Positions 40,872 to 63,391 of a DNA stretch of 64,000 nt are shown here, piece by piece (within the stretch, counting starts at the first letter, position 1; each line of letters opens with the position of its first letter). The position numbers and the translations under genes are program-made. This stretch comes from an uncultured Verrucomicrobiae bacterium (GTDB taxonomy: Bacteria; Verrucomicrobiota; Verrucomicrobiia; Limisphaerales; SIBH01): the NCBI GenBank assembly GCA_963760275.1, contig CAVXCM010000013.1, positions 910,653 to 974,652 of the forward strand. Direction: 5' to 3'. The notes under the pieces are model-generated. The model searched no databases. It was not told the origin of the DNA and saw nothing but the letters and a program-made list of their open reading frames with translations.

Positions 40872-41028
40872 GGCGAGTGTTGCTGGAGACTTATAGATAT
40901 CGCGAGATGCTGAGGCAAACGGAATCCTGATTCGGGCGGGTGGAATCCCGTTCCTTGCCTCTCTCCAAGTTCGGCGCAACCATTGCCCGTTCGTAATGTT
41001 GAACGAACGTGGCCGTGGCTTGACGAGC

Positions 41029-44406: not shown

Positions 44407-44647
44407 ACCACTCTTGCCATTGGCGGCAGTCGTCGGCGAACCCGTTGAACCTTTGCGGGACGAACACTTACAACGGTATCCGAATTTGGGATTGGGTCCA
44501 TTTCACGCGGCTCCTTTTAACCCTTAAATTGGTTATTTCCAGCGGTTTCCCGGTTTCTGAATAGGGAATGGAGAACCCTAGTCGATCATGTATAATCAAT
44601 TGCCTCTCGAGTTGGATTTCAACGCGGGTGGCGACAAGAAAGCATCT

Positions 44648-46765
44648 ATGAAAACCTCCATTGTCCGGCACTGCTGCGTTGGTTTGGCAGCCGGTCTGAC
44701 ATTCTTCCTCGGTTGTGCAAAACCTTCGGCTGAAACCGAACAACCTCGCTCCGTGGTGGCTCCGGCGCCGTCGCCTGTGGTGGCTCAATCCTCGCCCGCG
44801 CCGGTTGTTCAGACGCTGCCCAACTCCGAAGCCCCTCCTTCAACAGGGACCAATGTTCCCGCGATCATTGAGCGCGTTCCACCGACTGTGACGCCTGAAA
44901 ACGTTTCCCTCTCCACGGGGTTGTCGGAAGTGGTCAAGCTTACTCAATCCGGCGTGGCGGAAGACGTGATTCTCGCCTACGTGGAAAAATATTCCGGACG
45001 GTTCAACGTGGGGGCAGAACAGATTCTGTATTTGAACGACGTCGGTGTGGCCAGCACCGTCATCACGGCGATGCTCAAGCATGATGGCGCCGAAGGAACC
45101 GTCGCCAACCCACCGGGAACTCCTCTGCCCTCGGTGCAGACCCAAGTCGTCTCCAATCTTCCTCAGGTGCCAGTGACGGATCAGCCCGCGCCTGCGCCTG
45201 CTCCGGTCGCAACCACGGTGGCTCCGCCGCCGACCTCCTCGGATGCTGCGTATTTTTATGACGCACTCTCCCCCTACGGGAGTTGGATTTACCTGTCTAA
45301 CTACGGTTGGTGCTGGCAGCCGACTGTAGCTGTTGCAGTTGGTGATTGGCGGCCTTACAGCGATCGCGGCCGGTGGTATTGGTCGGACGCGGGGTGGTAC
45401 TGGAACTCCGATTATAGTTGGGGTTGGGCTGCATTCCATTATGGCCGCTGGTATCGGCACCCCGGGTGCGGCTGGGTCTGGACGCCGGGTAGGGTCTGGG
45501 CTCCGTCATGGGTGAGTTGGCGTTATTCTCCCGGCTACTGTGGATGGGCGCCATTGCCGCCTGAAGCCCATTTCGTCAGCGGCTTCGGTTTCACCTATTA
45601 CGGTCGGCATGCCAGTATCGGATTCGAATTCGGCCTGAGCGATTACCATTACTCATTCGTGTCCATCGGCAATTTTTGCGATTACTCCCCGCATCGCTAT
45701 TACGTTCCTCGCTCCAACGTGCGCAATGTGTACCGCAACACCACTGTGGTGAATAACTACATCGTGGGGAACAACAACACCGTCATCAATCGCGGCATCG
45801 GGCGTGAGACGGTGGCGCGCTCGAGCCAGAATCGAATTCGCGAAGTCTCGGTGCGCGAGACCTCTCTTCAGCACGCCTCGCAATCCCGAATGGACCGCGT
45901 GGAACGCAAGGGGAATGAATCAGTCGTGCTTCGCCCGCAGTTGCCTTCCACCCCGCCCCCCATTCGCACGGCGCAGTTTGCCGGGCGCTCCAGTTCATCC
46001 GGATTCAATAGCGTCGGACGTGCGTCTACCGCTGGCATCACTCCGGGCAACACCATCCGCAGCGGGTCCAGCGTGCCACCGTCCACGGCAGGGCGCGTCT
46101 CCACCGCGCGAACGAGTTCGGGCACGGTCACTGAGAGCCGGGCTTCGGAACGGGTGACTGCGCCTGAAGCGGCTCCGGCACGGCCCGTCGTGACGCCGCG
46201 TGCGGTTCCGAATGAAAGTGTGTCGAGAAGCGCCGGGCGGTCGGCGGTGGAACGTCCTGCTGCCGAGCCGCGCTCGTCGGCGCGTGTCCAACAATCGCCC
46301 GTGCCATCACCATCGCGTGCCAACACGCCGTTGTTTGGAGACGTTCCTCGGACCTCCACCCAGCCCAACGCAAGCGTGCCGCGTTCCGTAACGCCGCCGA
46401 CGGTGTCCGCGCCGCGAAGCCAGTTCCAACAACCGTCGGTTCAGCCCCAGCAACCGAGATATAGCGCGCCTTCCGCTGCCGGGAATGTTCGCAGCTACAG
46501 TCCAGCCCCGGCGCCGTCCACGCCCTCTATTCGGTCCGAGCCACGCAACAGCCCTGCGCCGACATATTCACCGCGCCAGTTGGAACAAACGCCGCGTCCG
46601 TCAGCTCCCGCGTATTCTGTGCCGCGTTCCTCAAGTGGGGGCGGCGGCGGCGTCTCCGCCCCTCAGGCTCCCTCTCGTTCTTACGGTGGCGGGGGCCGCG
46701 GTGAAGGAGCTGTTGGGGGCGGCGGAGGAGGTGGGCGCGGAGATCGATCGGATCGCGGTCGGTAA
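44648..46765 (+). CDS. lipoprotein with a Trp-rich (WxxGxW-type) repeat core and a ~300-aa Ser/Pro/Arg-rich low-complexity tail ending in a Gly/Arg tract
   Basis: Lipobox LTFFLGCAKPS after MKTSIVRHCCVGLAAG. Core YGSWIYLSNYGWCWQPT...RGRWYWSDAGWYWNSDYSWGWAAFHYGRWYRHPGCGWVWTPGRVWAPSWVSW. The tail ends GGGGVSAPQAPSRSYGGGGRGEGAVGGGGGGGRGDRSDRGR. Confidence 0.7.
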   Translation: MKTSIVRHCCVGLAAGLTFFLGCAKPSAETEQPRSVVAPAPSPVVAQSSPAPVVQTLPNSEAPPSTGTNVPAIIERVPPTVTPENVSLSTGLSEVVKLTQSGVAEDVILAYVEKYSGRFNVGAEQILYLNDVGVASTVITAMLKHDGAEGTVANPPGTPLPSVQTQVVSNLPQVPVTDQPAPAPAPVATTVAPPPTSSDAAYFYDALSPYGSWIYLSNYGWCWQPTVAVAVGDWRPYSDRGRWYWSDAGWYWNSDYSWGWAAFHYGRWYRHPGCGWVWTPGRVWAPSWVSWRYSPGYCGWAPLPPEAHFVSGFGFTYYGRHASIGFEFGLSDYHYSFVSIGNFCDYSPHRYYVPRSNVRNVYRNTTVVNNYIVGNNNTVINRGIGRETVARSSQNRIREVSVRETSLQHASQSRMDRVERKGNESVVLRPQLPSTPPPIRTAQFAGRSSSSGFNSVGRASTAGITPGNTIRSGSSVPPSTAGRVSTARTSSGTVTESRASERVTAPEAAPARPVVTPRAVPNESVSRSAGRSAVERPAAEPRSSARVQQSPVPSPSRANTPLFGDVPRTSTQPNASVPRSVTPPTVSAPRSQFQQPSVQPQQPRYSAPSAAGNVRSYSPAPAPSTPSIRSEPRNSPAPTYSPRQLEQTPRPSAPAYSVPRSSSGGGGGVSAPQAPSRSYGGGGRGEGAVGGGGGGGRGDRSDRGR

Positions 46766-48091: not shown

Positions 48092-48802
48092 ATGGCGGAA
48101 AGTTCCCCAGCTAATTCTGCGATTCCCGCCAAGGGAAGTCGCGTGGTGGTTCCCCGGCAATTGAAGCTGCGTCATCACTTGGGCGCCTTCCTTCTCTACG
48201 TGGGCTTCCGCTTGTTTTCGTTCACCTGGCGATGCCGTTACGTGGACCCGCACGGCTTCCTCAACCAACCGGCGCGTTCGGTGATTTATTGCTCCTGGCA
48301 CAATCGGCTCGCTCTCTCCATGACCATCTGGGAACGGGTTCGTCGCAAAGCGGGTCCCCCTTCTAAATTGGCCGCGCTGATCAGTGCCAGTCACGACGGA
48401 GGGTTGCTGGCCAAGGCGCTTAGTTACTTTCAGGTGGAAGCCGTGCGCGGATCATCGAGTCGCCGCGGCGCCCAGGCACTCCTCGAACTGACGTCGTACA
48501 CCGATCAGGGCTACAGCGTTGCCATCACGCCAGACGGCCCGCGTGGTCCGCGTTACGTGGTGCGAGACGGGATCATCGCGCTGGCCCAGCTAACCGGTTC
48601 CCCCATCATCCCGGTCTCAGTTCACATCCGGGGGAAACTTGTGCTGAAAAGCTGGGATCGCTTTCAGGTCCCGTGGCCGTTCGCGCGATGTGAAATTCGA
48701 ATCGGGATGCCTCTTCATATACCGCGGGAGCCGACCGAGGAACGACGCACCGCACTCAAAGAGGAGTTGCAGCGGCGGATGATGGAACTGACCGAGGATT
48801 GA
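48092..48802 (+). CDS. DUF374-domain protein (lysophospholipid acyltransferase-like)
   Basis: VIYCSWHNRLAL...SASHDGGLLAKAL...VRGSSSRRGAQALLEL...AITPDGPRGPRY. ATG lies 1 nt after the ruvA stop. Confidence 0.7.
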   Translation: MAESSPANSAIPAKGSRVVVPRQLKLRHHLGAFLLYVGFRLFSFTWRCRYVDPHGFLNQPARSVIYCSWHNRLALSMTIWERVRRKAGPPSKLAALISASHDGGLLAKALSYFQVEAVRGSSSRRGAQALLELTSYTDQGYSVAITPDGPRGPRYVVRDGIIALAQLTGSPIIPVSVHIRGKLVLKSWDRFQVPWPFARCEIRIGMPLHIPREPTEERRTALKEELQRRMMELTED

Positions 48803-48813
48803 GTTGCTACCGC

Positions 48814-49407
48814 TTACGGGGAGAAATCTTGTCGGTATTTTTCCCGCCGCTTCTGCACTGCAAGAACATATTCCTTCGTGGACGGAAATCCGATTTGCTT
48901 GATGAAGGCCGCGCTGTTGGTAGCCGCTTCCGCAGTCATCCATTTCAACGCATTCGCGCGGCCGGCATTGTAATCGGCGAGCGCATACGGCACCGGGTCA
49001 TCCGTCTTGTTGTAGCGCGACAACGACTTGCGCAGATACCACGTTCCGCAATCGATGTTAAGCGATGGGTTCCACAACATCGACTCGGAGAAGGACGACA
49101 TACGCTGGGCTCCGGCCCAATCCAATGCCGTATTTTCCATGATTTGCATCAGCCCGGTTTCGCCTTTGCTGCCTCGTGCCTTCGGGTTGAACCGGCTTTC
49201 ACGCCATACCACCGCCTTGATCAAGGCCGCATCCACGCCGTATTTGCGCGAGGCGGCGAGAATGTTTTTGTCCTGGCTGGATTCAATGCGGAGGCGCCGC
49301 CATTCAAACGTGAGAAAGCTTCCAAGCATCAATCCAAGCAATACCAGGGCAACCGGCCAACGCCATTTAGTCGTTCGAAATTGAGCTCTGGAGCGAGCGC
49401 TACTCAT
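48814..49407 (-). CDS. lytic transglycosylase (SLT domain), membrane-anchored
   Basis: TM anchor WRWPVALVLLGLMLGSFL. SLT motifs AVVWRESRFNPKARGSKGETGLMQIM and YNAG. Confidence 0.8.
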   Translation of the reverse strand: MSSARSRAQFRTTKWRWPVALVLLGLMLGSFLTFEWRRLRIESSQDKNILAASRKYGVDAALIKAVVWRESRFNPKARGSKGETGLMQIMENTALDWAGAQRMSSFSESMLWNPSLNIDCGTWYLRKSLSRYNKTDDPVPYALADYNAGRANALKWMTAEAATNSAAFIKQIGFPSTKEYVLAVQKRREKYRQDFSP

Positions 49408-49422
49408 TTGAAATTGCCCCGT

Positions 49423-51100
49423 TTACTTCCGCTCGTAGATCAACGTGCCCAGGGTGAAGTTCAATTTCTCCTGATCGCCGGTCACATCGTTGATAGTCCC
49501 AAGAAAATCCCCGGCGCGATTCAACAGGTCAGCGCGCTTCTCATTCTCGCTCACGACGCGCAGCAACTGATGTTCGGTCACGCCAATGCCTGGACCGGTC
49601 ACATCGTTGTTGTCCTGCATCTCGATCCAGAACTCGATGCGCGTGCCTTCGGCGAGCGGAGGTTGGAAATCGCGGATGCTCCACTCGTAGCGATTCTTCA
49701 TTTCCTTCACGGCGTTGGTGCCCACATCGAGCTGGATGGTTTTGATCTCAGCTTCCTCAGACTCACCGACGCGGTAGCGCAAGCGCGCCTGGGCCAGACG
49801 AAAATCGTCAGTGGCCTCAAACGCTATGGGCTGCACCGCCTGCCGCGTCACCAGCTCCTCCCGTCGATCCGGATAAAGGATGCGCACCTTCGGGGCGCGG
49901 TCCGGCACCACGTCGATTCGGTAAACGGCCGGGTCACGAGTTTCCATGCCGTTGACGGCGACCATTTCGATGGAAAATCCGGAAAGACCTTTGCCAGGAA
50001 TGTCGAACGCGCCATGCAATTCCCGCGGGTTGCTGGCACTGACTTGCAGCGGCACATCATTGCTCAAGCCCGCCAGACGAATGAACGCCTTCTGGATATC
50101 GTCGGTGGCCGTCGCTTGAATGGAAAGTTTGCTGCCCGCCAGCAAGGTGAGATCTCCCGGCGCGCGCTTCGTTTTCGGCAAGCCGGTGTAGGCGGGAAAC
50201 GTTTGCTCGCACTGGATGGATGCCATACTCGGGCGCGGCACCACGGTCACCTGGTAGGCGCGGCTCACGTCCATCATTGAGCCGCACGGTGTAGCTGAAG
50301 TCCTGCTGCACATTTTCCACGGCGCGGAAGAATCTTCCCTCTTTGTCTTTCTCCAGCGGGTATTCCTGCGTCCGTTTGCCGGAAGTTTTAACGACGAGTT
50401 TGCCCGCCCGCGGCACCACGCCGCGCGCTCGTGCTTCGATGCGAAGGCTGTCGCCACGGCCTATGCGCGTGTCACCCGTGATGATTTCGACACGGGTATG
50501 GCGGGGGACGAGAGTGGATGAAAGAAACGCTCGTTTGAGCAGGTCATGGCTTACGTCGCCGCCATACATGAAGGAAAAAATCCCCAGGACCAGCACGGCG
50601 AATGACCAGGTCATTATCTTCCGCAGTTCTTTGGTGGGAATCACCTGCGTGAAGTCCATCGGCCGCGCCAGTTCCTCTGTTTCTGCAATCGTCCTGCGCA
50701 CGAGGGAGGTGGCGGCGTTGGCGGGGATCGCGCCCGGTCGGGGAAATTGAATCGATGAAATCAATCGCGAGCGAAAGTGCGGATGCGCTTTTTCAACGCG
50801 AAGCGCAACTGAGTCGTCGTCTGGCTGCCGGCGAATGGGTGTGACAACAAAGCGCCATGTTACAAAGCCGGTGACTCCCAACACGATGCAAAGCAGAACA
50901 GTTCGCACCCCGAGCGGAAAATCCAGCCACCAATCCAGCAGCATGGACGTGGCGAGCAGAATGATGAACACGCCCACCGCCATGCTGGCGCCCGTGCCCG
51001 CCGCGACACCGACTTGCTTGCGCCGGACGGCAGCAATTTTCTCCGTGAGCAGAGCGCTCGGGGCTAAACGTGGCTCTTGGGCGGGTGGTTCAGCAATCAT
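49423..51100 (-). CDS. membrane protein of unknown function (DUF4175-like, uncertain), one +1 frame break at about 50271
   Basis: Start MIAEPPAQEPR overlaps the upstream stop (ATGA at 51097-51100). Two TM helices (GASMAVGVFIILLATSMLL, VRTVLLCIVLGVTGFVTW). The N-part is in the frame of ORF 50057..51181 and the C-part is ORF 49423..50457, joined at VRLND/DVSRAYQVTVVP. Confidence 0.6.
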
Positions 51101-53528
51101 TTCAGTTGCGACATCTTCCTCAACACCCATTCCCCGGTCAGCACCAGCAGCATCAGCATGAAATAAAGCGGTGAAGACCACAGCTCCACCTCCAGGGGCG
51201 ATTTAACGCGCTCCGTTTTTGCCGCGATTGTGTCAGGCAGCTTGAACAAATCTTCTTCGCGGAAGAATGCACCGCCGCTGGCCGTCGCGATCTCGCGCAG
51301 CATCGCTTCGTTCATCGCCGTCTCGCCGAACTCGAACTTGGGTTCGGTGACGGCGAAGTCGAGCGGCGTGTCCAGATCCTGGTCGATGAAGAACTGGTAC
51401 TGTCCGGCCAGTGGAGCGATGAATTCGCCACGATAGAGCCCGGGGTGATCGGGCGCAGAACGCAGGATGACTTCCGTTTGTTTGCCGCCGCTGCGCACGC
51501 CGAACACACCCTTGACCGAGGCTTCCTGCAACGGTTCCGCCCCGGATGTTTGCAGGCGCGCAAAAACCAGCACGCGCTCGCCCGTCACGTAACTTTTCTT
51601 GTCGGTTGAAAGGCGCGTGCGCTTGGAGCCGCCCAGCACATGCAGCATCGCCATCCGTTGCGCGACCTGACCCCACAGCGTGGTGTAATACAAATCGCCG
51701 ACGTTCTTGCGCCAGCGCCAGGTGTTGTCGGTGCCGACATACATCACCTGTCCCTGGCCATATTGTTGCATCGCGACGACCGGCATCTTTCCGAAACGCG
51801 ATTCCTTGCCGGGATCGGGATCGACCAGCAGCACTTCGGCGGCGGGCTTGGGACGGGAAACTTTTGCGACCCAATAGACCGGGCGGCAATTGTTTCCAGA
51901 TCGCCACGCTCTCTTCGTCGCGGTCGGAGAGTCGCATCATCAGGTTGGCGCGGCCCGCCGCGGTGAGTTCCAGGCGGATGGGCTTGTCCGCCACCGGATC
52001 GGTTGCCGTGACGGTCACGCCGTCGAACTCCACCGGCAACATCTTGTCGAGGACGGTGCGTCGGTAGGCGTGGGGCGCAAACTTTTTGCCGGCGAGAAGC
52101 ACAAACGAACCACCCAACTCGGACACGAAATAGCTGACCGTCTCCAACTGGCCAGGGGTGAAGCTTGCGCGGATCGATGTCGCCAAAGATCACGAGGTCA
52201 TACTTCGCGATCTCCTCCTGCCGGGCGGGGAAATGGTCCATGTACGGAGTGTTGGTGCCGCGCGCGATCGCCGGATCCGATTCGACAAGGAAACATTTGA
52301 GGTCCACGCGGCGGTCGCGCAGGAGCATGGCTTGAAGGTAGCGGAACTCCCAGCGGGGTGACTGGTCCGCGAGCAGGATGCGGATCTTGCTGTCCACAAC
52401 CCGGATTGAATGGGTGGCAGAATTGTTCTCCTTCACCGTTTCATCCTCGCGCGGATCGATGGATGCGGTGAGCTCGAACTGACCCTGGTTCTGTGGCGTA
52501 AAATTCAGCGCGACGACTTGTTCGCCATCGGCGCCGAAGAGGATTTCTTTCTCAGCCACCGTGGTGCTGTCCAATTGGAGTTTCACTTTCGCGCTTTGCC
52601 CGCTCAGCCCCTGCGAGCGGACGCGTACGGTCACCGAGACCTCATCTTTCACGAACGTCACGTCGGGCGCGAAGAGGTTGGCTACAATGATGTCCCGCGG
52701 CGAGGTGATGCCCACGCCATAGATATAAAGCGGCACGCCTTCGGACCGCAATTGGGCGGCGGCATCGCGTGGTTGGGAGCCACTGTTGTTGGCGCCGTCC
52801 GTTACGAGCACGATACCGGCGAGCGGCTGGCCCCGCTTGCGATTGATGACCTCTCGCAATGAATCGCCGATGGGTGTCAGCGGGCTGGCAGGCGCGAGCT
52901 TGTCCACCCAGGTGTAGTCATCGATCTTGCGCGACTCGTTGGTCTTCGTTTCTGGACGGGACAACTGTGCGACGCCCTGGCCGAAGGTAAAGGGATCGAG
53001 GTCAAAGTTTTTCTCCAGCCTCGGCAGCAAGTTAAGGCGGGGATTCTTCATTGCGCTGCGGACCACCTCCACGCGGGCCATTTGCTCGACCTCCCTGGCG
53101 CGAACGGCATTAAGAGGTTGGCCTAATCCTTTGTCCGGTTCGAGGATGTTTCGCGCCAGCGCTGCGCGTTTCTGATCCGCTGCATCCACGCGCGGGTCCT
53201 TGATGTTCATGCTGGAAGATTCGTCGATGAGCATGACGAGTGACCGGCGGATGCTTCCCTCGACGGTGAGGGCCAGGATTGGGCGCAGCAACAGGCCAAG
53301 TACGAGGAGAAAGAACACGAGCCGTAGAGAAGTCAGGAGATATTTGCGCGGGCGTGAAATCGTCTGGGGTGTCCATGCATAGCTCCACCAGGTGAGGATG
53401 CCGAGGACCAGCGCACCAAAGATGATCCAGGGCAGGGGAACCCCGCCGCGGAAAGCAAGGGAGGTCTTACTGATGGCGAGGGCATCGTCCATCGGTGTGC
53501 CGAGAAGTTTGAGGAGGAGTTCGGTCAT
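51097..53528 (-). CDS. membrane-anchored VWA-domain protein with C-terminal TM helix, two +1 frame breaks at about 52165 and about 51881
   Basis: Start MTELLLKLLG overlaps the BatA-like stop (ATGA at 53525-53528). VWA MIDAS-like LVMLIDESSSM and IVLVTDGANNSG. Frames run 51744..53666, then 51233..52186, then 51097..51834. The C-terminus LYFMLMLLVLTGEWVL is a TM helix. Confidence 0.7.
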
Positions 53529-55717
53529 TTTGGTCGGCTGAACCACTGGCCCAGAAATGTTTCGGTAGCCGCCACAAGCATGGCGAGGATGACAATGGGC
53601 AGCCAGAACTCCGCGCCACTGCGGGCGTACTGAACCTGGCTTTTCAAGGACATGCCCGGAGCCCACTCAACGACATGAGCGGCGGTGCTGAGCAGTTTCT
53701 TTTGCTCGGTGGAAAGTTCGTCGAGGGAGGATTCAGAGCCATCCGGCTGGGCGGCGAAGCGAAGCACACTGCGTGTATCGCCGATGCCGACTTCGTAGAT
53801 GCCGGACAGGTCAGTGCCTTCGTATTGGAGCATTGGCCATCCGTTGACCAGTTCAATGCGGCGTTGTTCGAGCAGCGCATCGGTGGCCCGTGGTTTGAAA
53901 ATGCGCGCTTCCTTGTCGAGCAGTTCGGAGGCAAGCCGGCGCACAAACTTCTCGCCGACGCGCACGTTCAACCCTTCATCCTGTCGCTGCACCAGGGCGC
54001 CGAGCGTGCGGTGGATAATTGGCACGAAAGACGGTCGGACGGGAAGATCGTTCCAGGCGGTGTCTGCCGTGCTGGCGAACATGACGACGCGCCCGAGGCC
54101 GTGGGTGTGTTCGATAATGCCCGGGGTGCCATGCGTGAACTTCGCCACGATCTGCGGAGCGCCCCCTTCCGTCTCGGTCGCCGGGGAGGCGTTGGTGGTG
54201 CTATTGATTCTGACCGGCAGGAGGTCATGGGCACGATAAAAACGGACGGACGACAACGTCCCCGCGTTGGGATCATTCCAGAGCGAGACGATGCCGTGCT
54301 CCAAACTGCGATCCTGCAGGGTGAAGAAACTGACGTCCTGGTCTGCATTGCCCCGCGCGGGGCCGAATGTGGCCGGCAGGAGACGGTACTTTCCCGCCAG
54401 TTGCTCGTTATAGAAAACCGGATTGATCCGGTTGCCGGAAAAGATCATCAAGCCGCCGCCGCGCCGGACGTATTGCTCGAGGTTCTTGGCGACCGAATCA
54501 GCGAAGTCAGCGACGTTGGCGAGGACGACCGCGTCGAAATCATCCAGGCGCGCCGTCGAAAACTCGGAGGCGATCAGGCGGGAAATCTTGATGAAATAAT
54601 TAGCCTGCTCGCTGGAAGGCACGGGAATCAGCGCGTGACGAAGGAAGAACGTTTCGCTGTCGCGCGCCTCGGCGCCGGGATCGCCATCGATGAGCAGGAC
54701 CCGCACTTCTTTGATGGCCCGAACGGCGAGGGTTCGTTTGTCGTCTGCCGGCAAGCGATCTTCGGCAAGGCGCACGACGATGGAGTGAAAGCCTTCGGTA
54801 CGGAGCTTCGCGAAAAGCGAGACGCTCTTGCTACCACCCGGCGGAAGCGCGTCGATGGTAAACTCATCGCTCGGCGGCTCGTTATCGGTGCTGAGGCTCA
54901 CCCGCACATTGCTCACTGGTTCGCGGCCGAGATTGCTAACTCTCGCTTCGAAACGCACAGGCTGGTTTACCGGCGTGAGACCGCTGGCGTTCCGCAAATC
55001 TGTCACGGCGAGGTTGCGTTCCTCATGTTCGTTGACCAACACGATGTGACTCGCAACGTCGCGCTGCGAACTTTCGAGGAGCTTCTGGATTTCGGTCAAT
55101 TGCTTCCAACCCACCAGCTGTCCGTCGGTGACCAGATAAATTTCTTTACGGATGCCGATGCGCTGCTTGAGCGTGTCGAGCGCGCGCTGAACGGCGGGCA
55201 GCAGGTCGGTGGCGCGGTCTGTGAGTGGAGCTTCGCGGATGGCTTTGCGAGCGAGATTAAAATCAAAAGTCGGCTCAGGGATTGCGCCGAAGGCGATGTC
55301 TGAGGCGAGGAACACAGCCGCGGACGAGCCGTTGGGCATGGCCTCCAGCGCCTCCTCAGCCGCCTTCTTGGCCTTTTCGAAACGCGTCATCGACCCGTCA
55401 CTCATTCCCATGCTGGCAGAATTATCCACGATGATCGCGCCGGTGACTTTCGACTGCCCGAAAAAGTCGCTGCTCGAATTCTGAAACGCCGGTCGCGCCA
55501 GGGCGAACGCGAGCAAGGCAAGCAGGAGGCAACGCAGGGCCAGCAGAATCATGTCCTCAACGCGCATCCGTCGCTGATTGCGCTCCACGCTGGTTTGAAT
55601 GAATCGCATCGCCGCCCACACGACCTTCTGAAATTTCCGTCGGTTGAGCAGATGAATGATGATCGGAACGGAAACCGCCGCCAGGCCGAAAAGGAGAAGT
55701 GGATTGAGGAAGCCCAT
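53525..55717 (-). CDS. BatA-type protein: N-terminal double-TM aerotolerance-regulator domain plus VWA domain
   Basis: MGFLNPLLLFGLAAVSVPIIIHLLNRRKF (BatA_N / TIGR02226-type). VWA IIVDNSASMGMSDGSMTRFEKAKKAAEEAL. C-terminal TM helix. Confidence 0.8.
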   Translation of the reverse strand: MGFLNPLLLFGLAAVSVPIIIHLLNRRKFQKVVWAAMRFIQTSVERNQRRMRVEDMILLALRCLLLALLAFALARPAFQNSSSDFFGQSKVTGAIIVDNSASMGMSDGSMTRFEKAKKAAEEALEAMPNGSSAAVFLASDIAFGAIPEPTFDFNLARKAIREAPLTDRATDLLPAVQRALDTLKQRIGIRKEIYLVTDGQLVGWKQLTEIQKLLESSQRDVASHIVLVNEHEERNLAVTDLRNASGLTPVNQPVRFEARVSNLGREPVSNVRVSLSTDNEPPSDEFTIDALPPGGSKSVSLFAKLRTEGFHSIVVRLAEDRLPADDKRTLAVRAIKEVRVLLIDGDPGAEARDSETFFLRHALIPVPSSEQANYFIKISRLIASEFSTARLDDFDAVVLANVADFADSVAKNLEQYVRRGGGLMIFSGNRINPVFYNEQLAGKYRLLPATFGPARGNADQDVSFFTLQDRSLEHGIVSLWNDPNAGTLSSVRFYRAHDLLPVRINSTTNASPATETEGGAPQIVAKFTHGTPGIIEHTHGLGRVVMFASTADTAWNDLPVRPSFVPIIHRTLGALVQRQDEGLNVRVGEKFVRRLASELLDKEARIFKPRATDALLEQRRIELVNGWPMLQYEGTDLSGIYEVGIGDTRSVLRFAAQPDGSESSLDELSTEQKKLLSTAAHVVEWAPGMSLKSQVQYARSGAEFWLPIVILAMLVAATETFLGQWFSRPK

Positions 55718-55721
55718 TCGA

Positions 55722-56633
55722 TCAGCGCGTGGTCGTGCGCAAGCGGAACGCCAGATAACCGCTCAAGACTTCGTGCAAGGGTTCCGCGGTGTTCACGAGC
55801 AGATAGTGCGATTGGTTTTTCTCGCAGCCCTCACGGAGGCGATCGCGGAAGGCCTGCACTTCGCGCAGATAACTTTTTCGCAACTCAGCCGGGCGCGTCA
55901 GGATTTTCGGAATGTTCTCGAAACCTTCAAATTCAACAAGGCCGGTAAAGGGAAACTCCAGTTCGAACGGGTCCATGACGTGAAAGCAAATCACCTCGTT
56001 GCCGCCAAAGCGCAAATGCTGGATGCCTTCGAGCACCTTCGCCTCGTCATCGAAGAAATCGCTAATGACGATGACGATGCCCTTGCGCCGAAGCTGGTTC
56101 GCCATGTCGTGCAGCACGGTGGAGATGTTCGTCTGCTGCGCGGGTTGAAAGGCGGCGAGGCGCGCCATGAGCCGGTGAATGGTCGAGCGATTGTCGCTGC
56201 GCGGTGAATAGTCGCGCACGGTCTGATCAAAGATTCCGAGGGCCGCGGCATCGCGCTGGTGCAGGATGAGGAAGGCGAGGCAGGCGGCGATTTGTTTGCC
56301 GTACTCGAACTTGGTGATTTTGCCCGAGCCGTATTTCATCGACTCACTGCCATCGAGCAGGATGTTCGCGACGTAATTCGTCTCCTGCTCGTATTGCTTG
56401 ATGTAGTAACGATCGGTCCGGCCGAGGACTTTCCAATCGAGATGCCGCGTGTCGTCACCGTGTGTGTATTCGCGATGCTGGGCGAACTCTATGGCAAAAC
56501 CGCGATACGGCGACTTGTGCTCGCCCGCCATGTAACCCTCAACCACGTAGCGCGCCTGCAATCCCAACGCTTCCGCGCGGGAAATGGTCTGCGGGTCAAG
56601 TAGTTGATCGAGGTGAGCCTGGTCCATGGGCAA
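55722..56633 (-). CDS. DUF58-domain protein
   Basis: GEHKSPYRGFAIEFAQHREYTHGDDTRHLDWKVLGRTDRYYIKQYEQETN is the characteristic DUF58 core. Confidence 0.85.
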   Translation of the reverse strand: MPMDQAHLDQLLDPQTISRAEALGLQARYVVEGYMAGEHKSPYRGFAIEFAQHREYTHGDDTRHLDWKVLGRTDRYYIKQYEQETNYVANILLDGSESMKYGSGKITKFEYGKQIAACLAFLILHQRDAAALGIFDQTVRDYSPRSDNRSTIHRLMARLAAFQPAQQTNISTVLHDMANQLRRKGIVIVISDFFDDEAKVLEGIQHLRFGGNEVICFHVMDPFELEFPFTGLVEFEGFENIPKILTRPAELRKSYLREVQAFRDRLREGCEKNQSHYLLVNTAEPLHEVLSGYLAFRLRTTTR

Positions 56634-56651
56634 CGATTTCTGACGGGACGT

Positions 56652-57677
56652 TTACGCCGCCAACTTCTCGTCCTTGGGAATGGTTTCGAGGATGCGCCGG
56701 GTAATGTCGTCGCTGGTGACGCCTTCACTCTGGGCGGCGAAATTGGCCACGATGCGGTGACGGAAAATAGGGAGGGCCACGGACGCCACGTCGTCGCAAC
56801 TCACGTAGGTCTGGCCGCGCAGGATGGCACGGGCTTTTGCGGCGAGGATCAGGTTCAACCCGGCGCGCGGCCCGGCGCCCCATGAAAGCCATTTCTTGCA
56901 GAAGTCCAACGCCTCGTCAGTCTTTGGCCGCGTGGATCGCACCAGGCGCTGGGCATAGGCGTAAACATGTTCTGCCACGGGCATGCGGCGAACGATTTGT
57001 TGCAGACGCAGGATTTCGTCGATGCCTAAGACGGCGCTCGGCTTTTCCATGGGCGCGCCGGTGGCCATCTTCATGATCTGCAATTCCTCCGTCGCGGTTG
57101 GATAATCCACAAGAATCATGAACATGAAGCGATCGAGTTGCGCTTCGGGCAGCGGGTAGGTGCCTTCCTGTTCGATGGGGTTTTGAGTAGCCAGGACGAA
57201 GAACGGGTCGGGGAGCGCGAAGTCGTTTCCGCCCACGGTGACTTTGCGTTCCTGCATCGCCTCCAGCATCGCAGCCTGGGTCTTGGGCGGCGTGCGGTTG
57301 ATTTCGTCCGCGAGAATCATGTTGGCGAAGATGGGCCCCTTCAGGAAACGGAACTCGCGCGCATTGGTCTGCGGGTCCTGGAAAATAACTTCGGTTCCCG
57401 TGATGTCGCTGGGCATGAGGTCCGGTGTGAACTGGATGCGCTTGAACGACATGTGCAGCGTCTGGGCCAGGGTGGAGACGAGGAGGGTCTTGGCGAGCCC
57501 GGGCACTCCAACGAGCAGCGCGTGGCTGCGGGTGAAGATGGAAATTAAAGCCTGCTCGACGACTTCCTCCTGCCCCACGATCACTTTGCCCAATTCAGAT
57601 TTGATGCGTGCGGCGGCTTCCTTGAGATGTTCCACGGCCTGCAAGTCCTGATCGCCCACTTGTGACTCAATGCTCAT
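56652..57677 (-). CDS. MoxR-family AAA+ ATPase
   Basis: VIVGQEEVVEQALISIFTRSHALLVGVPGLAKTLLV (Walker A), ILADEINRTPPKTQAAMLEAMQE (Walker B / sensor), FFVLATQNPIEQEGTYPLPEAQLDRF. Confidence 0.92.
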   Translation of the reverse strand: MSIESQVGDQDLQAVEHLKEAAARIKSELGKVIVGQEEVVEQALISIFTRSHALLVGVPGLAKTLLVSTLAQTLHMSFKRIQFTPDLMPSDITGTEVIFQDPQTNAREFRFLKGPIFANMILADEINRTPPKTQAAMLEAMQERKVTVGGNDFALPDPFFVLATQNPIEQEGTYPLPEAQLDRFMFMILVDYPTATEELQIMKMATGAPMEKPSAVLGIDEILRLQQIVRRMPVAEHVYAYAQRLVRSTRPKTDEALDFCKKWLSWGAGPRAGLNLILAAKARAILRGQTYVSCDDVASVALPIFRHRIVANFAAQSEGVTSDDITRRILETIPKDEKLAA

Positions 57678-57815: not shown

Positions 57816-58361
57816 CTACTGGCCATCTACGCCAGCCTTCGTTTCGACCCAGCGCGCCATGAGCCACAAGACGTCGGAAAGGCGATTCAAATAAACGATG
57901 ATTTCATCGTTAACCGCTTCGCCACCCTCCCGAATGCTGCACACCCGGCGCTCGGCGCGGCGGCAGGCGGTGCGAGCTAAATCGAGCAGGGCAGCCAGGG
58001 GAGTGGCGCCGGGAGTGGCCCATCCTTTGAACGAGATTTGTTGCGCCTCCAGGTTCTTCACCAACTCGTCCAGTCGCGAGGTCATGGTCTTCGTAACGAG
58101 AGTGAAGCCATCACGCGCATACCGTTCGAGGTCCGGGGGCGAAGTGGCCAGTTCGCCCATAATTTCCACGAGCTGCTTTTGCGTCGCGAATAATTCATCC
58201 CTCAGCCGGGCGTCGCTGGAATTAGCCCGTGCCATCCCCAGGGCGGCGTTGAGTTCATCGATGGCCCCGTTGGCTTCGATGCGCGGATGGGTTTTGGCGA
58301 CGCGCCGATTATACATCAGGCCGGTGGTGCCGTTGTCGCCTGTTCGGGTGGCTATGCTCAT
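57816..58361 (-). CDS. PduO-type ATP:cob(I)alamin adenosyltransferase
   Basis: TRTGDNGTTGLMYNRRVAKTHPRIEANGAIDELNAALG and the C-terminal helical bundle motifs. Confidence 0.88.
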   Translation of the reverse strand: MSIATRTGDNGTTGLMYNRRVAKTHPRIEANGAIDELNAALGMARANSSDARLRDELFATQKQLVEIMGELATSPPDLERYARDGFTLVTKTMTSRLDELVKNLEAQQISFKGWATPGATPLAALLDLARTACRRAERRVCSIREGGEAVNDEIIVYLNRLSDVLWLMARWVETKAGVDGQ

Positions 58362-58556: not shown

Positions 58557-59363
58557 GTGCCCAAGTCCCGCAAAGAAACTCAGAAGTTCTCTCGCCGCAT
58601 CCCTCTGGCGGCACTCTCCATCGCTCTGTTCGCGCTGGCCGCCGTGACCTTCTGGATAACCATGAGGCCGGAGGCGCGGCGAGCGAACGGGCACACGACT
58701 AATACCGTGGCTTCGGTGGCAAACACCAACGCACCGAGGTCGATGGCGAACACGAATCTGGAAGACGCCCGATTTTTTTTCACCTGGCTCACGAATCAAT
58801 CTGAGTCGGGTGAGCTGCTGAATATTGGAACGCGCCTTTTGGAGGAGGGGCGAGCCGGGCAGGCACTGCTATGTTATCATCGCGCATTTGAGTTGAAGCC
58901 CGACGACGAAGAAATCTCATTCAATCTCGGCGTGGCTTACGCGCGCATCGGCAAACTTCGGGAAGCCGAACATCATTATCGTGAAGCATTGAAACTCTTC
59001 CCTGATTACATCGAGGCGCACAACAATCTGGGCAACATCCTCACTCGACAGAAAAGATTTGGCGAAGCGATCGAGCAATTCAACCTGACCTTGAGTCTCT
59101 CGCCTGAGAATGCCTCAGCACACAACAACCTGGGGCGAGCATACGCTGAACAGGGCAATCCATCCAAAGCCTTGGTTCACTTCAATGAAGCTGCTCGCCT
59201 GGATGCAAACTATCCGGAGGCGCGATTCAATGCCGGGTCGGCTTATTTGAGCCTTGGGAAAACAAATGAGGCAGTCACGGCGTTCCAGGAAGCGTTGCGC
59301 CTTCGGCCCGATTTTGCGCCGGCGACCCAAGCTCTAATCCGGTTGCAATCGACGACTCCGTGA
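58557..59363 (+). CDS. membrane-anchored TPR-repeat protein
   Basis: TM helix IPLAALSIALFALAAVTFWI. At least five TPR units (AYARIGKLREAEHHYREALKLFPDYIEAHNNLGNIL..., AEQGNPSKALVHFNEAARLDANYPEA...). GTG start is assumed. Confidence 0.7.
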   Translation: MPKSRKETQKFSRRIPLAALSIALFALAAVTFWITMRPEARRANGHTTNTVASVANTNAPRSMANTNLEDARFFFTWLTNQSESGELLNIGTRLLEEGRAGQALLCYHRAFELKPDDEEISFNLGVAYARIGKLREAEHHYREALKLFPDYIEAHNNLGNILTRQKRFGEAIEQFNLTLSLSPENASAHNNLGRAYAEQGNPSKALVHFNEAARLDANYPEARFNAGSAYLSLGKTNEAVTAFQEALRLRPDFAPATQALIRLQSTTP

Positions 59364-59530: not shown

Positions 59531-60229
59531 ATGTTGGATTCATTGTTCACGGCTTTAAGTAACGGCGATTACGGCGCCGCGCCTACCAATTTTCCGGCCA
59601 TGGCGCTTGGCCTGTTGCTGGCGTTCGCCATGGGGCACATTGTCGCCTGGGTCTACATGCTGACGCACTCTGGCCTTTCCTACTCCCGCTCTTTCGTGAA
59701 TGCGTTGGTCATCATGCCCACCATCGTAGCCATCGTCATGGGCGTGCTATCCAATAACTTGATCACCGCGTTTGGAATGATGGCGGTTTTTGCGATCGTC
59801 CGCTTCCGTAACATTCTCCGCGATACGTTGGACACCACCTACGTATTGACGGTGCTGGTGATTGGGCTGGCTTGTGGCTCGCAAAAATTCACGACGGCGG
59901 TGATTGGTTGCGCCCTAACGGCCATTGGGATGTTGTATCTCTGGACCACGTCTTTTGGCAGTCGGCATCGCTACGACGTGATCGTAAATCTTCATTGGGC
60001 GAGACCGCTCGTAGATTTGGGGGATTTAACGCGCGCTTTGAATCGGCATAGTCGGCGCACCCTTTGCGCCAGCCAACGCTCCCATGAAGGCTATGAAGGC
60101 ACGGATCTTTCCTACCGGTTACTCCTCCGCGACCCCAATCGTGTGGAGGAAATGCTCAGTGAATTGCGCGGGACGACCGGCGTCTCCCGTGTAACGAGCA
60201 TGCAGGCTGAAGACGAATCAGAAGTTTAA
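59531..60229 (+). CDS. DUF4956-domain membrane protein
   Basis: MALGLLLAFAMGHIVAWVYMLTH...AFGMMAVFAIVRFRNILRDTLDTTYVLTVLVIGLACG matches the DUF4956 pattern as I recall it. Confidence 0.65.
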   Translation: MLDSLFTALSNGDYGAAPTNFPAMALGLLLAFAMGHIVAWVYMLTHSGLSYSRSFVNALVIMPTIVAIVMGVLSNNLITAFGMMAVFAIVRFRNILRDTLDTTYVLTVLVIGLACGSQKFTTAVIGCALTAIGMLYLWTTSFGSRHRYDVIVNLHWARPLVDLGDLTRALNRHSRRTLCASQRSHEGYEGTDLSYRLLLRDPNRVEEMLSELRGTTGVSRVTSMQAEDESEV

Positions 60230-60230
60230 C

Positions 60231-61316
60231 ATGGATCCACTCCCACCCATCCCGACACCGCCAGCTCAACGCTGGCGTGAGTTTCGCATTCAAGCACTCC
60301 CGGTAATAACATTTCTCGGAATCCTTTGCTGCGTGGTGATGCTGTGGAAGAACTATGTTCTGCCGTCAAACGTGGTAGCTCGTGTGGAAGTTGTGCAGAG
60401 CCGGATTGTAACCTCCCTGCCCGGCAAGTTGGTTGAGCTAAAAGTTCAGCAATACCAAAGAGTAACCAAAGGGCAGGTAATCGGAACCCTCATCGCAACC
60501 AGTCCCGAAACCACTGCAGCCGAAATCGCCGCCGCTCAGGCTGATTTAAAGGTGCAAAAGGCGCAGATGGTCGTAGCCCAGCAGCGATCCAACCAGGATT
60601 ATGCGGGGTTGTTAATGGATTTGCTCAATCACCAGTCCGAACTGGCTACGGAACGGATTAATCTCCGGCTTGCTGAAACCAACTTCGCGCGCGCGGAACT
60701 GGAAATTAAGTCCGAGCCCGTCCTTATTTCTCCGTTGGAGTATGACACGGCCAAAGCGACCCGGGATGCATTAGCGGCCGCCGTGCAGGAAAAAGCAAAA
60801 CTCGTTGAGACGATGGAAAAGCTGGTTGAAAGCTACCGAGTTTCAAACGTCTCCACGGATTACGAAAAATCAATCGAGGACGCCATCGCGGCTCATTCCA
60901 CGGTTCTGAACTTGATGGGGGATCCTGTGGTGCTCCGGGCTCCCATGGACGGAATTGTTGTAGCCATTAGCAACCAAGTGGGGGAGGTCGTAATGGCAGG
61001 GGTACCCATCGTGATTATTGTTTCGGACAGCGCGGAGCACATTGTTGGATATATGCGACCCCCGTTTGAGTCCAAGGTGCAGATTGGCGATCGCGTGAGA
61101 GTACGGCGTGTCGGTATAACTCGGAAGACAGACTACGGCACAGTTCTCAACGTCGCGCCCCAGGTGCAACCGCTCGATGCCACGCATGCCTCGCCTGGGG
61201 CGACTCAAGTGGAGTTTGGTTTGGGGTTCCTTGTTAGCCTCCCCAAGAGTCTGGACCTTATCCCGGGTGAACCGGTGGATTTAATTTTTGAGGAACGACC
61301 CGCATCGGCAAAGTAA
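60231..61316 (+). CDS. HlyD-family membrane-fusion (periplasmic adaptor) protein
   Basis: N-terminal TM ALPVITFLGILCCVVMLW. Lipoyl-like hairpin SLPGKLVELKVQQYQRVTKGQVIGTL ... LRAPMDGIVVAISNQVGEVVMAGVPIV. Long coiled-coil between the two halves. ATG lies 1 nt after the DUF4956 stop. Confidence 0.7.
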   Translation: MDPLPPIPTPPAQRWREFRIQALPVITFLGILCCVVMLWKNYVLPSNVVARVEVVQSRIVTSLPGKLVELKVQQYQRVTKGQVIGTLIATSPETTAAEIAAAQADLKVQKAQMVVAQQRSNQDYAGLLMDLLNHQSELATERINLRLAETNFARAELEIKSEPVLISPLEYDTAKATRDALAAAVQEKAKLVETMEKLVESYRVSNVSTDYEKSIEDAIAAHSTVLNLMGDPVVLRAPMDGIVVAISNQVGEVVMAGVPIVIIVSDSAEHIVGYMRPPFESKVQIGDRVRVRRVGITRKTDYGTVLNVAPQVQPLDATHASPGATQVEFGLGFLVSLPKSLDLIPGEPVDLIFEERPASAK

Positions 61317-61340: not shown

Positions 61341-61368
61341 AAGGCGCTCTACAACGAGCGCCTTTTTT
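61341..61368 (+). terminator. Rho-independent terminator after the DUF4956-HlyD pair
   Basis: Perfect 9-bp stem AAGGCGCTC (61341-61349) / GAGCGCCTT (61356-61364), 6-nt loop, T-run to 61368. Confidence 0.85.
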
Positions 61369-61417
61369 CTTTGCGCAATTTTTCCTGGAACGTGATGCTC
61401 GCATCAACACGTCAGCC

Positions 61418-63391
61418 ATGATGACTCCGAAGATTGCGCAAGTACTCTACGGTGGCGAATACCACCCTGAAGCGTGGCCGGAACCTCTTTGGAACGAAGA
61501 CATGGCTTTGATGCGGCGCGCCGGAGTAAACCTCGTCACTCTCGGCGCACTGACCTGGAACAAACTCCAACCCACCCCTGACACGTTTGATTTCGAGTGG
61601 TTGGACCGCGTGATGAATCTGCTGCACACGCATGGGATTCTGGCCGGAATCGTTACCCCCGCCTGCCAACCGCCGCCATGGCTGACGCGGCTTTATCATG
61701 AGAGACAAGACGGCTCCAGCAGCCCCTTCGGTTCTTGCCTCAATAATCCAGTTTTTCGGGAGCATGGGGACCGACTGGTCCGTCGGCTATCGCAGCATCT
61801 CGGCGCTCATCCTACACTGGCCTTCTGGCAGGTGACGCTTCCCTTGAGCGTTGGCGGCCCCTCTTGTCGCTGCGAATTGTGCACGGTTAAGTTTCGGATC
61901 TGGCTTCAATCGAGGTATCGAACACTCGACGTTCTAAACGAACACTGGGGGACCGGCGCGGCTGGCGGCCCATATCAACATTGGGAAGAGGTCGCGTTTC
62001 CGTCCGACCTTTCGCAATTCGCCACCCCTGCTCATCAACTGGATTATCTCCGTTTTCAAAGTGACGCGCTCCTCGAATATTTTCTGAGCGCGAAAAGCGT
62101 TCTGCGTGAGGCGGCACCCGAGCTGCCGGTCACGACGCTTTTCAACGGTGAGACCGGCATTTCCCCGTGCTTGAATGCCTTTCAATGGTCGAAACACGTT
62201 GATTTTATCGCTTGGAATTTCGCTTTGGATCCATTGGGCGCCGAGTCGGCCGACTTGGCGTTTGGATGCGACGTTCAACGCGGGGTGGGCGAAGGCCGAG
62301 CGTGGCTGCTCAAGTTTGTTACGTCACCCCCGTGCCCGCGCGTACAAAATCCGGTGTTGCGCCCGGGGCAAGTCGGCCTGTGGAGCGCGCAGGCCATCGC
62401 CCATGGGGCTGACGGGATCTTGTTTTCTCAATGGCGCGCTCCCAACGCGGGCTCTGACAAGTTCGAACCTGCGATGCTTCCGCACGGGCTTACTGAGACG
62501 AGGGCATTCCGTGAGGTCGAACAGCTGGGTGGCACATTGAAGAAACTGGCGGCGGTGATGGGCGCCACGGCCCGCTCGGAAGTCGCTTTGGTGCTGGATT
62601 GGGAAAGCATGTGGGCCGTGGAATCTAACTCTTCTCCCGCTCGGATTAATTACGCCGAATTGCTCCGGAGTTACTATCGCGCATTGTTCGAGCCCGACGT
62701 TCCCATCGACATCATTCCAGCGGAGGCAGACCTCACGAAATACAAGCTGGTCGTCGCGCCCGCCCTGCATGTTGTGCGCGCCGGTGTAGCCGAAAATTTG
62801 TATGGGTTCGTGGATAATGGCGGCACCCTCATCACGACTTTTCTGAGCGGTATCGTCGATGCCAGCCTAAGGATTCTGCCAGGTGGATATCCAGCGGCCT
62901 TCCGCAAGTTGCTTGGCATCCATGTTGAGGCGTTCGACGTCTTTGGTGCCGAAATAAGGCACATGAAAACGGCTCTGCGCGGCGCCCGTTGTACCGCGTG
63001 GGCAGATATCATCCAACTCGAGGGTGCGGAAGCAGTGGCCGCGTTCACGGACGATTTTTATGCGCATCAAGCGGCCATCACGCGCAACGCACTGGGACGC
63101 GGCCTGGCGTACTATGTGGGCACGCAACCAGAACCCGCGTTCCTGCGCTCGTTGCTCGCGGAGATTTGCAGTGACTCTGGCGTGCGGCCCCCCATGCGCG
63201 CTCCGGCAGGTGTGGAAGTGACCACCCGCTTCAACGATCAGGGTGAATTCCTTTTCCTCCTCAATCACAACCCCACGATCCAATTCGTCGATATTGGACC
63301 CCGGATCCGGCGGGATTTGATCAGCGGCGAAATGATCAAGGGGCAATGTCAGCTGGAGTCGCGAGCGGTGCGGGTGCTTCAGTTGGCTTGA
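61418..63391 (+). CDS. GH42-family beta-galactosidase homolog, apparently lacking both catalytic glutamates
   Basis: YGGEYHPEAWPEPLWNEDMALMRRAGVNLVTLG and the CxCxxC zinc cluster (CRCELC) are GH42-like. The DNEY acid/base position reads TLPL and the WxME nucleophile position reads WLLK. Confidence 0.75.
   Translation: MMTPKIAQVLYGGEYHPEAWPEPLWNEDMALMRRAGVNLVTLGALTWNKLQPTPDTFDFEWLDRVMNLLHTHGILAGIVTPACQPPPWLTRLYHERQDGSSSPFGSCLNNPVFREHGDRLVRRLSQHLGAHPTLAFWQVTLPLSVGGPSCRCELCTVKFRIWLQSRYRTLDVLNEHWGTGAAGGPYQHWEEVAFPSDLSQFATPAHQLDYLRFQSDALLEYFLSAKSVLREAAPELPVTTLFNGETGISPCLNAFQWSKHVDFIAWNFALDPLGAESADLAFGCDVQRGVGEGRAWLLKFVTSPPCPRVQNPVLRPGQVGLWSAQAIAHGADGILFSQWRAPNAGSDKFEPAMLPHGLTETRAFREVEQLGGTLKKLAAVMGATARSEVALVLDWESMWAVESNSSPARINYAELLRSYYRALFEPDVPIDIIPAEADLTKYKLVVAPALHVVRAGVAENLYGFVDNGGTLITTFLSGIVDASLRILPGGYPAAFRKLLGIHVEAFDVFGAEIRHMKTALRGARCTAWADIIQLEGAEAVAAFTDDFYAHQAAITRNALGRGLAYYVGTQPEPAFLRSLLAEICSDSGVRPPMRAPAGVEVTTRFNDQGEFLFLLNHNPTIQFVDIGPRIRRDLISGEMIKGQCQLESRAVRVLQLA

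Follow-up and report, generated by a model that had tools for sequence, protein, structure and literature searches.

A conserved lineage of GH42 proteins in Verrucomicrobiota lacking both catalytic glutamates, probably a pseudoenzyme

The GH42-like gene, its domains and its fold

The stretch analysed here, referred to as the window, comprises 64,000 nucleotides of contig CAVXCM010000013.1 (assembly GCA_963760275.1, positions 910,653 to 974,652, forward strand) from an uncultured Verrucomicrobiae bacterium. Near its end lies an open reading frame (ORF) for a protein of glycoside hydrolase family 42 (GH42) in which both catalytic glutamates are replaced, a state shared with a whole clade of related proteins. 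The features of the gene were as follows.

61418..63391, forward strand: GH42-like ORF, predicted to be a catalytically dead family member (657 aa plus stop; Pfam, profile HMM and fold)
61418..62557, forward strand: domain A, TIM barrel homologous to the GH42 catalytic domain (aa 1-380; Pfam)
61703..61738, forward strand: shortened loop ahead of the zinc ligand Cys107 (predicted local distance difference test, pLDDT, <50 at aa 97-104)
61829..61846, forward strand: QVTLPL replacing the acid/base motif H-V-N-N-E-Y (profile alignment)
61865..61882, forward strand: CRCELC, with three of the four zinc-site cysteines, C150/C152/C155 (the fourth is C107), retained
62300..62320, forward strand: AWLLKFV replacing W-L-L-M-E-Q, with a one-residue deletion (profile alignment)
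62579..63184, forward strand: domain B, GH42 trimerisation domain, with a clade-specific Tyr to His change at position 451 (aa 388-589; Pfam)
63209..63388, forward strand: domain C, GH42 C-terminal beta domain (aa 598-657; Pfam)

The Pfam domain Glyco_hydro_42 (PF02449) matched the window protein at 1.9e-90 with 304 bits (cut-off 21) over model positions 2-376 of 376, and domains 42M (PF08532) and 42C (PF08533) matched at 6.9e-61 and 1.3e-10, respectively. All three GH42 domains (TIM barrel A, trimerisation B and beta domain C) were found by Pfam at full length. A profile hidden Markov model (HMM) was built from 62 GH42 homologs, every one of which carries both catalytic glutamates, and this intact-GH42 profile scored the window protein at 724 bits. 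The closest solved structures were 9TA3 (2e-149), 3TTS (6e-132) and 4OIF (1.5e-105), all of them GH42 beta-galactosidases. An NCBIfam search with the window protein gave no match, and the ORF has no signal peptide.

An AlphaFold2 monomer model, computed from a 96-sequence alignment, reached a pLDDT of 91.6 and a predicted template modelling score (pTM) of 0.93. The pLDDT fell below 50 only at residues 97-104 and 144-146 and dipped around residues 301-310; these low-confidence stretches are precisely the three remodelled active-site loops. When the model was searched with Foldseek, the template modelling (TM) score was 0.94 to 3TTS, with 689 columns superposed, and 0.84-0.92 to other GH42 structures, with 0.90-0.92 for the remaining bacterial GH42 beta-galactosidases. 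As judged from the model, the GH42 fold is retained and the catalytic centre is lost. The conserved domain B would be compatible with a homotrimer.

The characterised GH42 beta-galactosidases (3TTS Bca-beta-gal, 4OIF/5DFA Gan42B, 8IBR BiBga42A and 1KWG Thermus A4) have the same A/B/C architecture, length and fold as the window protein (TM 0.84-0.94). They also share with it the Cys4 zinc site and the motifs YGGxYxPExW, AHGADG and QWR and, like it, have no signal peptide. The Cys4 zinc cluster occurs in many, not all, GH42 proteins.

Loss of the catalytic residues and of the -1 subsite

In the profile alignment the segment 'WhvnneYgc' paired with WQVTLPLSV at maximal posterior probability, which put L141 in place of the Asn and P142 (61841-61843) in place of the acid/base Glu. 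The segment 'wvlmeqtts' paired with WLL-KFVTS, with the Met deleted and the nucleophile Glu replaced by K299 (62312-62314). The acid/base Glu, E160 in BiBga42A, belongs to the N-E motif where strand beta-4 ends. The nucleophile Glu lies on strand beta-7 and corresponds to E318 in BiBga42A and E323 in Gan42B. In the pairwise alignment with 4OIF the register was off by one and F300 stood under the nucleophile Glu, yet no Asp or Glu was present within residues 293-303, whichever alignment register was used. The loop before C107 contains two 4-residue deletions, one of which removes the substrate-binding Arg of the motif G-x-R-Q-H-Y-C.

The -1 subsite of BiBga42A consists of R121, N159, E160, D285, Y287, E318, W326, F356, E366 and H369, together with W200* and F221* from the adjacent subunit, and its residues are reported to be conserved among all structure-determined GH42 beta-galactosidases (PMC10688820). 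The BiBga42A residues were mapped to the window protein by motif and profile, with the following result.

R121: deleted in the window protein (4-residue deletion before C107)
N159: L141
E160: P142
D285: N267
Y287: A269
E318: K299
W326: P307
F356: S337
E366: D347 (conservative)
H369: E350
W200* (adjacent subunit): A182

Eight of the ten -1 subsite residues were thus deleted or replaced by another residue class, and the other two changes were one Asp to Asn and one Glu to Asp. Loss of catalytic activity would be expected from these replacements. By homology and fold the window protein is a GH42 member, and judged by its residues it fails the functional definition of the family, that is, the two catalytic glutamates and the -1 subsite.

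Translation of the other two frames at both motifs gave stops or unrelated sequence, and no hidden NNEY or MEQ was found. A change from AAY-GAR to CTT-CCC requires at least five base changes, and the identical window protein was present on two independent contigs. A compensated frameshift or miscall at the motifs was ruled out by the other frames and by the same state in about 28 independent sequences.

An earlier sequence-only reading of this gene had proposed that both catalytic glutamates were replaced, and the profile alignment bears this out, with P142 and K299 at the two positions; its reading of the two motifs as QVTLPL and AWLLKFV was likewise confirmed. It was also right that the CRCELC zinc motif is retained, to which C107 can be added, that the neighbouring conserved positions are kept (AIAHGADG and FSQWR are still present in the window protein), and that the change from NE to LP is no simple miscall, given the number of base changes and the lack of a compensated frameshift. 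The alignment to GH42 is not free of gaps as it had stated, on account of the deletions before C107 and at the nucleophile. Its account of the damage holds for the two glutamates; the damage is not restricted to the two catalytic motifs, and most of the -1 subsite is gone.

A clade without catalytic glutamates and its intact sister clade

The 120 best matches to the window protein served as the homolog set. Neither position held a catalytic Glu in P0001-13, 16, 17, 19, 22, 23, 26, 34, 36, 37, 39 and 58 or at loci L001 and L048, which answers the suggestion of the sequence-only reading that orthologs be surveyed for the same substitutions. This group, hereafter the dead clade, numbers about 28 sequences with 57-70% identity to the window protein, which come from metagenomes and from Verrucomicrobiota metagenome-assembled genomes (MAGs); the related genome contigs were labelled as Verrucomicrobiota, Pedosphaera sp. 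and 'Akkermansia sp.' MAGs. The nucleophile column of the dead clade held 18 R, 5 K and 1 Q (Arg or Lys in 23/24) beside a common one-residue deletion, and the shortened Arg loop was also common to its members. The four zinc-site cysteines were at least 90% conserved across the clade.

In a neighbour-joining (NJ) tree the dead sequences clustered together and adjoined an intact clade (P0014, 15, 18, 20, 24, 25, 27-33, 35 and 38), exemplified by locus L006 of a Pedosphaera sp. MAG. Compared with the dead clade, this sister clade is about 60% identical overall and 76-79% identical in domains B/C. It retains R, N-E, Y (mostly), M-E-Q, W, F, E and H, whereas the one-residue deletion with Arg/Lys and the shortened Arg loop mark the dead clade; the zinc site is the same in both. 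The NJ tree carries no support values; a single origin of the dead state rests mainly on the shared indel and the Arg/Lys.

Partial degeneration was found in the sister clade (among P0021, P0025, P0027, P0028, P0033, P0014 and P0040), where the Tyr287 equivalent was changed to C, S or N, the stacking Phe to S, and the His to Q. In P0021 the nucleophile Glu was changed to Gln, and in P0040 N-E was changed to A-D. Going by their residues, these partially degenerate members look like intermediates toward the dead state.

A second Verrucomicrobiota GH42 group, clade C (P0042, P0047-P0052 and P0054), is about 50% identical to the window protein, and in it only the acid/base Glu is replaced, by T, A, Q, H or R. 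The nucleophile, Arg, Tyr, Trp and His are retained in most members; in P0047 the nucleophile position holds Gln. Clade C may consist of acid/base-less glycosidases of unusual mechanism or may represent an early stage of the same decay.

The survey was extended to 50%-identity cluster representatives. At this level the dead-clade proteins fall into clusters that have other sequences as representatives, and the members of the clade are not enumerable from this set. Both glutamates were kept in 141/150 of the nearest representatives. One or both were missing in about 7 of about 145 full-length representatives (about 5%), from unrelated lineages: P0176, P0207 and P0235 lacked both, and P0165, P0185, P0245 and P0253 lacked the acid/base Glu. 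These seven represent independent lineages and are 29-35% identical to the window protein. Like the dead clade, clade C and the seven representatives are without one or both glutamates, so loss of catalytic residues appears to be recurrent within GH42; none of them has the indel plus Arg/Lys signature that distinguishes the dead clade.

State of the former pocket and selection on the gene

The ten active-site columns showed a mean pairwise identity of 0.31 in the dead clade compared to 0.59 for random ten-column sets of domain A (P ~0.0015), and the same ten columns had an identity of 0.88 in the intact clade. At 7/10 of the pocket-lining columns of the dead clade the identity was 0.13-0.28. 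In the dead clade, 29 columns that are conserved in intact and other GH42s were found to have become variable. Domain A holds 28 of these, and the remaining one is Tyr451 in domain B. The simplest reading of these columns is that the former pocket would no longer be a functional site.

Residues re-fixed specifically in the dead clade were A30, R230, G254, A331, A352, H451, P488, L501, G536 and Q570, in addition to Arg/Lys299; this screen gave no new invariant Asp or Glu in the dead clade. New catalytic residues in the dead clade were rejected, as the re-fixed positions include no carboxylate. The change from Tyr to His451 was fixed in 23/24 dead sequences, whereas 13/13 reference GH42s outside both clades and 87% of the intact sister clade had Tyr at this position. 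Glu/Asp347, which is retained, is probably compensated by the Arg or Lys that has taken the place of the nucleophile.

The full-length dead-clade sequences that were aligned (23 database proteins and the L001 and L048 ORFs) were all uninterrupted, with lengths of 646-667 aa. For the closest dead-dead pairs, dN/dS (omega) was calculated by the Nei-Gojobori method, and the approximate values are given below together with those of an intact pair.

P0022/P0023, dead/dead: 0.078 for the whole gene, 0.089 for domain A, 0.046 for domains B/C
P0022/L001, dead/dead: 0.105 for the whole gene
P0020/P0033, intact/intact: 0.098 for the whole gene

For domain A, omega was about 0.09-0.11 in dead-dead pairs. 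The mean pairwise identities within each group were as follows.

Dead clade: domain A 0.60, domain B 0.81, domain C 0.78
Intact sister clade: domain A 0.77, domain B 0.81, domain C 0.83
Other GH42s: domain A 0.70, domain B 0.58, domain C 0.46

The barrel of the dead clade is therefore relaxed yet still constrained, and the constraint on domains B/C is unchanged. Compared to the GH42 beta-galactosidases, in which the two glutamates and the substrate Arg loop are present, the dead clade lacks both; its -1 Asn, Tyr, Trp, Phe and His and the Trp of the neighbouring subunit are substituted and variable, and its most conserved part is domains B/C, not domain A.

Upstream genes, terminator and promoter

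Two genes, a strong intrinsic terminator and a candidate promoter precede the GH42 gene in the window.

59531-60229, forward strand: DUF4956 membrane protein, 232 aa, upstream neighbour
60231-61316, forward strand: HlyD/MFP-like protein, upstream neighbour
61341-61374, forward strand: intrinsic terminator after the MFP gene (9-bp GC-rich hairpin at 61341-61364 plus T-run)
61371..61399, forward strand: candidate promoter TTGCGC-N17-GATGCT, nearly invariant, about 20 nt before the ATG

DUF4956 and MFP form a tight two-gene unit in which the MFP start lies about 2-20 nt past the DUF4956 stop. The unit was present in nearly all of the 80 metagenome loci fetched with DUF4956 (L045-L124), across which DUF4956 was 69-94% identical and MFP 27-78%. 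In all loci with upstream sequence, dead or intact (the window, L037-L042, L044, L002, L004, L006, L045-L050, L052 and the P0025 contig), the trio DUF4956-MFP-GH42 was uninterrupted and in a single orientation, and the outer flanks differed. GH42 followed the unit only where DUF4956 was at least about 87% identical to that of the window (7 of the 80 metagenome loci). In about 30 loci with DUF4956 at most about 85% identical and enough downstream sequence, MFP followed and GH42 did not. Locus L054 is a close relative without GH42 downstream of DUF4956-MFP. The clade C GH42s are without the DUF4956-MFP pair, and their loci L003 and L043 have a different context.

The terminator between MFP and GH42 was kept, with compensatory stem changes, in 10/10 aligned loci, and the same terminator ends the DUF4956-MFP pair in close relatives without GH42 (L054 and L056). 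A three-gene operon as a clue to function was rejected on account of this conserved terminator and of the approximately 30 loci with the pair lacking GH42. DUF4956-MFP is a widespread two-gene unit of which GH42 is a lineage-specific neighbour. The promoter-like motif took the form TTGCGC-N17-(G/C)AT(G/C)(C/T)T across relatives, with CAT[C/G]TT as its second half in relatives. It is probably the GH42 gene's own promoter and would then allow independent expression; it may represent a Verrucomicrobiota promoter overlapping the terminator tail.

Dead and intact GH42s are positional orthologs: both lie in the locus that follows DUF4956-MFP and the terminator, and so the dead form descends in situ from an active enzyme. 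Trees of DUF4956 and MFP, built to test the number of origins and vertical inheritance, were poorly resolved. The MFPs of the window and L037 are 78% identical to each other and 36-39% identical to the MFPs of other close relatives, and in the MFP tree the pair lay on a long separate branch. The relatives with those divergent MFPs still have DUF4956 86-94% identical. The divergence of the window and L037 MFPs could reflect replacement or very fast evolution.

A search of the PDB with DUF4956 returned only noise. In Gram-positive bacteria, DUF4956 accompanies CotH, polyphosphate polymerase and DUF4832 beside Pel loci, and CotH is a recurrent DUF4956 partner in other phyla (PMC7112168). The window encodes a CotH-kinase-domain protein with an EF-hand (42412-44406, forward strand) and a DUF6600 protein (44588-46765, forward strand). 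At locus L042 a giant CotH-containing protein is encoded directly upstream of DUF4956.

Interpretation and alternatives

The window protein is probably a conserved "dead enzyme"; it is neither an error nor a decaying gene. We consider it, with a probability of roughly 0.75, a pseudoenzyme of GH42 origin whose non-catalytic role would require the GH42 architecture, especially domains B/C. Behind this reading stand the loss of the catalytic and -1 residues, the retention of the fold, the sharing of this state across the clade, the purifying selection and the domain-specific shift in conservation. The protein can be called a pseudoenzyme because GH42 homology without the essential catalytic residues is combined with intact ORFs and a dN/dS well below 1, and the proposal of a non-catalytic pseudoenzyme in the sequence-only reading agrees with these findings. 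The protein is probably dead both in catalysis and in sugar binding, and its most likely role would be a structural one or one in protein interaction, with domains B/C at its centre.

The following course of events would account for these observations. The ancestor would have been a cytoplasmic GH42 beta-galactosidase with its catalytic residues intact, encoded at the same place in the chromosome, as in the sister Verrucomicrobiota. One lineage would have lost the acid/base Glu on beta-4, and the nucleophile Glu on beta-7 through a one-residue deletion and a change of Glu to Arg or Lys, together with the substrate Arg loop, Tyr, Trp, the stacking Phe, His and the Trp of the neighbouring subunit. 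The pocket residues would afterwards have drifted freely, and the Arg/Lys that replaced the nucleophile probably forms a salt bridge with Glu/Asp347, neutralising or plugging the barrel centre. The protein has retained its TIM-barrel fold and Cys4 zinc site and, above all, domains B/C, which are as conserved as in active orthologs. Selection would then maintain a role that needs the GH42 architecture and involves neither hydrolysis nor galactose binding.

Several points weigh against this reading. The BiBga42A mutant E160A/E318A retained slow turnover at high substrate concentration (PMC10688820), and because that protein is still slowly active, trace activity of the dead protein would be possible from sequence alone. 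The NJ tree is unbootstrapped, and the P0034-39 subclade and the degenerate P0041 join near its base. With dS about 1 or higher, the dN/dS values are approximate, though far from neutrality. The high conservation of domains B/C is also found in the sister clade and may be a property of the lineage rather than the signature of a new role. Finally, the gene-context analysis gave no partner for a non-catalytic role.

A more specific proposal is that the clade represents a new functional family that uses the GH42 trimer as its scaffold and whose conserved activity or binding would be exerted via Arg/Lys299 with Glu/Asp347, or via domains B/C including His451. We regard this as unlikely. If true, it would be the first non-glycosidase role derived from GH42, and the intact Verrucomicrobiota orthologs would already foreshadow it as an additional constraint.

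The protein might still be an enzyme, with a relocated apparatus, as the sequence-only reading had offered as its second option, or with a changed chemistry (Arg/Lys299 with Glu/Asp347, His451, or an exogenous nucleophile or base). The purifying selection on domain A (omega about 0.09-0.11), the Arg/Lys fixed at the nucleophile column with Glu/Asp kept at the E366 equivalent, and the fixation of His451 for Tyr in 23/24 dead sequences would fit such an enzyme. However, no new invariant Asp or Glu was found anywhere in domain A, and hypervariable pocket columns are the opposite of what a re-tuned active site would show. Schiff-base chemistry is excluded by the alternation of Arg and Lys, the Trp, Phe and Tyr that stacked against the sugar are gone with inconsistent replacements, and the model is disordered exactly at the active-site loops. 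A surviving enzyme is thus rather improbable, and the suggestion of a relocated catalytic apparatus is not upheld.

Still less probable is a lectin-like sensor, one form of the binding role put forward in the sequence-only reading, which would recognise galactosides where the active site used to be, in the manner of the GH18 chitinase-like lectins. The TIM barrel and the zinc site are indeed kept, and lectins and pseudoenzymes derived from glycosidases exist elsewhere, such as the GH18 chitinase-like CHI3L1 (PMC12248466) and the beetle GH28 pseudo-polygalacturonases (PMC8213348). In these the glycosidase fold is likewise kept and the catalytic carboxylates are replaced in a gene under selection, although the fold family and the organisms differ from those described here. 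However, chi-lectins retain the sugar-binding groove and its aromatics, whereas the pocket residues of the dead GH42 are not conserved: the galactose-contacting Arg, Asn, Tyr, Trp, Phe and His and the Trp of the neighbouring subunit are lost and variable among members.

It is very improbable that the protein is the cytoplasmic subunit of a DUF4956-MFP-GH42 envelope system, co-transcribed or physically associated with the upstream pair. The contiguity and common orientation of the trio in all loci with upstream sequence, despite differing outer flanks, would be expected of such a system, but a terminator separates MFP from GH42 in 10/10 aligned loci and is also present without GH42, and MFP without a following GH42 was found downstream of DUF4956 in about 30 loci. 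In addition, GH42 has no signal peptide while MFP is periplasmic, and clade C GH42s lack the DUF4956-MFP pair.

A pseudogene in decay, or an artefact of sequencing or assembly, which the complete loss of the gene in the close relative L054 and the scattered degeneration in the intact sister clade (Tyr to Cys/Ser/Asn, Phe to Ser, Glu to Gln in P0021) might suggest, is effectively refuted by the 25 uninterrupted ORFs on separate contigs, the dN/dS of about 0.08-0.1, domains B/C that are about 80% identical across the clade, the lack of any alternative-frame signal and the identical protein on two independent contigs.

No description of a dead or pseudo GH42 was found in the open-access literature searched; what is new here would be a conserved lineage within GH42 that its residues mark as non-catalytic. 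Databases that name dead-clade proteins call them 'beta-galactosidase', and automated counts of carbohydrate-active enzymes in Verrucomicrobiota MAGs would score them as a galactoside-degrading capacity that is, in part, probably absent. Active and dead orthologs at one locus in related genomes make this an unusually clean case of pseudoenzyme evolution, a natural series with partially degenerate intermediates in which constraint moves measurably away from the catalytic barrel and towards the accessory domains. Should the pseudoenzyme prove to have a non-catalytic role, this would be the first for GH42 and could explain the strong conservation of domains B/C in the lineage. Catalytic residues are missing from about 5% of the cluster representatives nearby, so such loss may be under-appreciated.

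Other genes in the window

Two ORFs of the window, at 38676-41924 (reverse strand, 1082 aa) and 48799-50280 (forward strand, 493 aa), gave no Pfam match at E<=1e-5. The window also encodes DUF1501, PPC and sulfatase proteins, a cobalamin adenosyltransferase (57816-58361, reverse strand) and a TPR protein (58557-59363, forward strand). The DUF1501, PPC and sulfatase genes, together with a BatA/MoxR/VWA cluster, are compatible with Verrucomicrobiota without being proof of that phylum. On the reverse strand, a MoxR-type AAA ATPase (56652-57677), a BatA/VWA protein (53525-55717) and a VWA/CARDB protein (51744-53666) form a Bat/MoxR aerotolerance-like cluster at 51744-57677.

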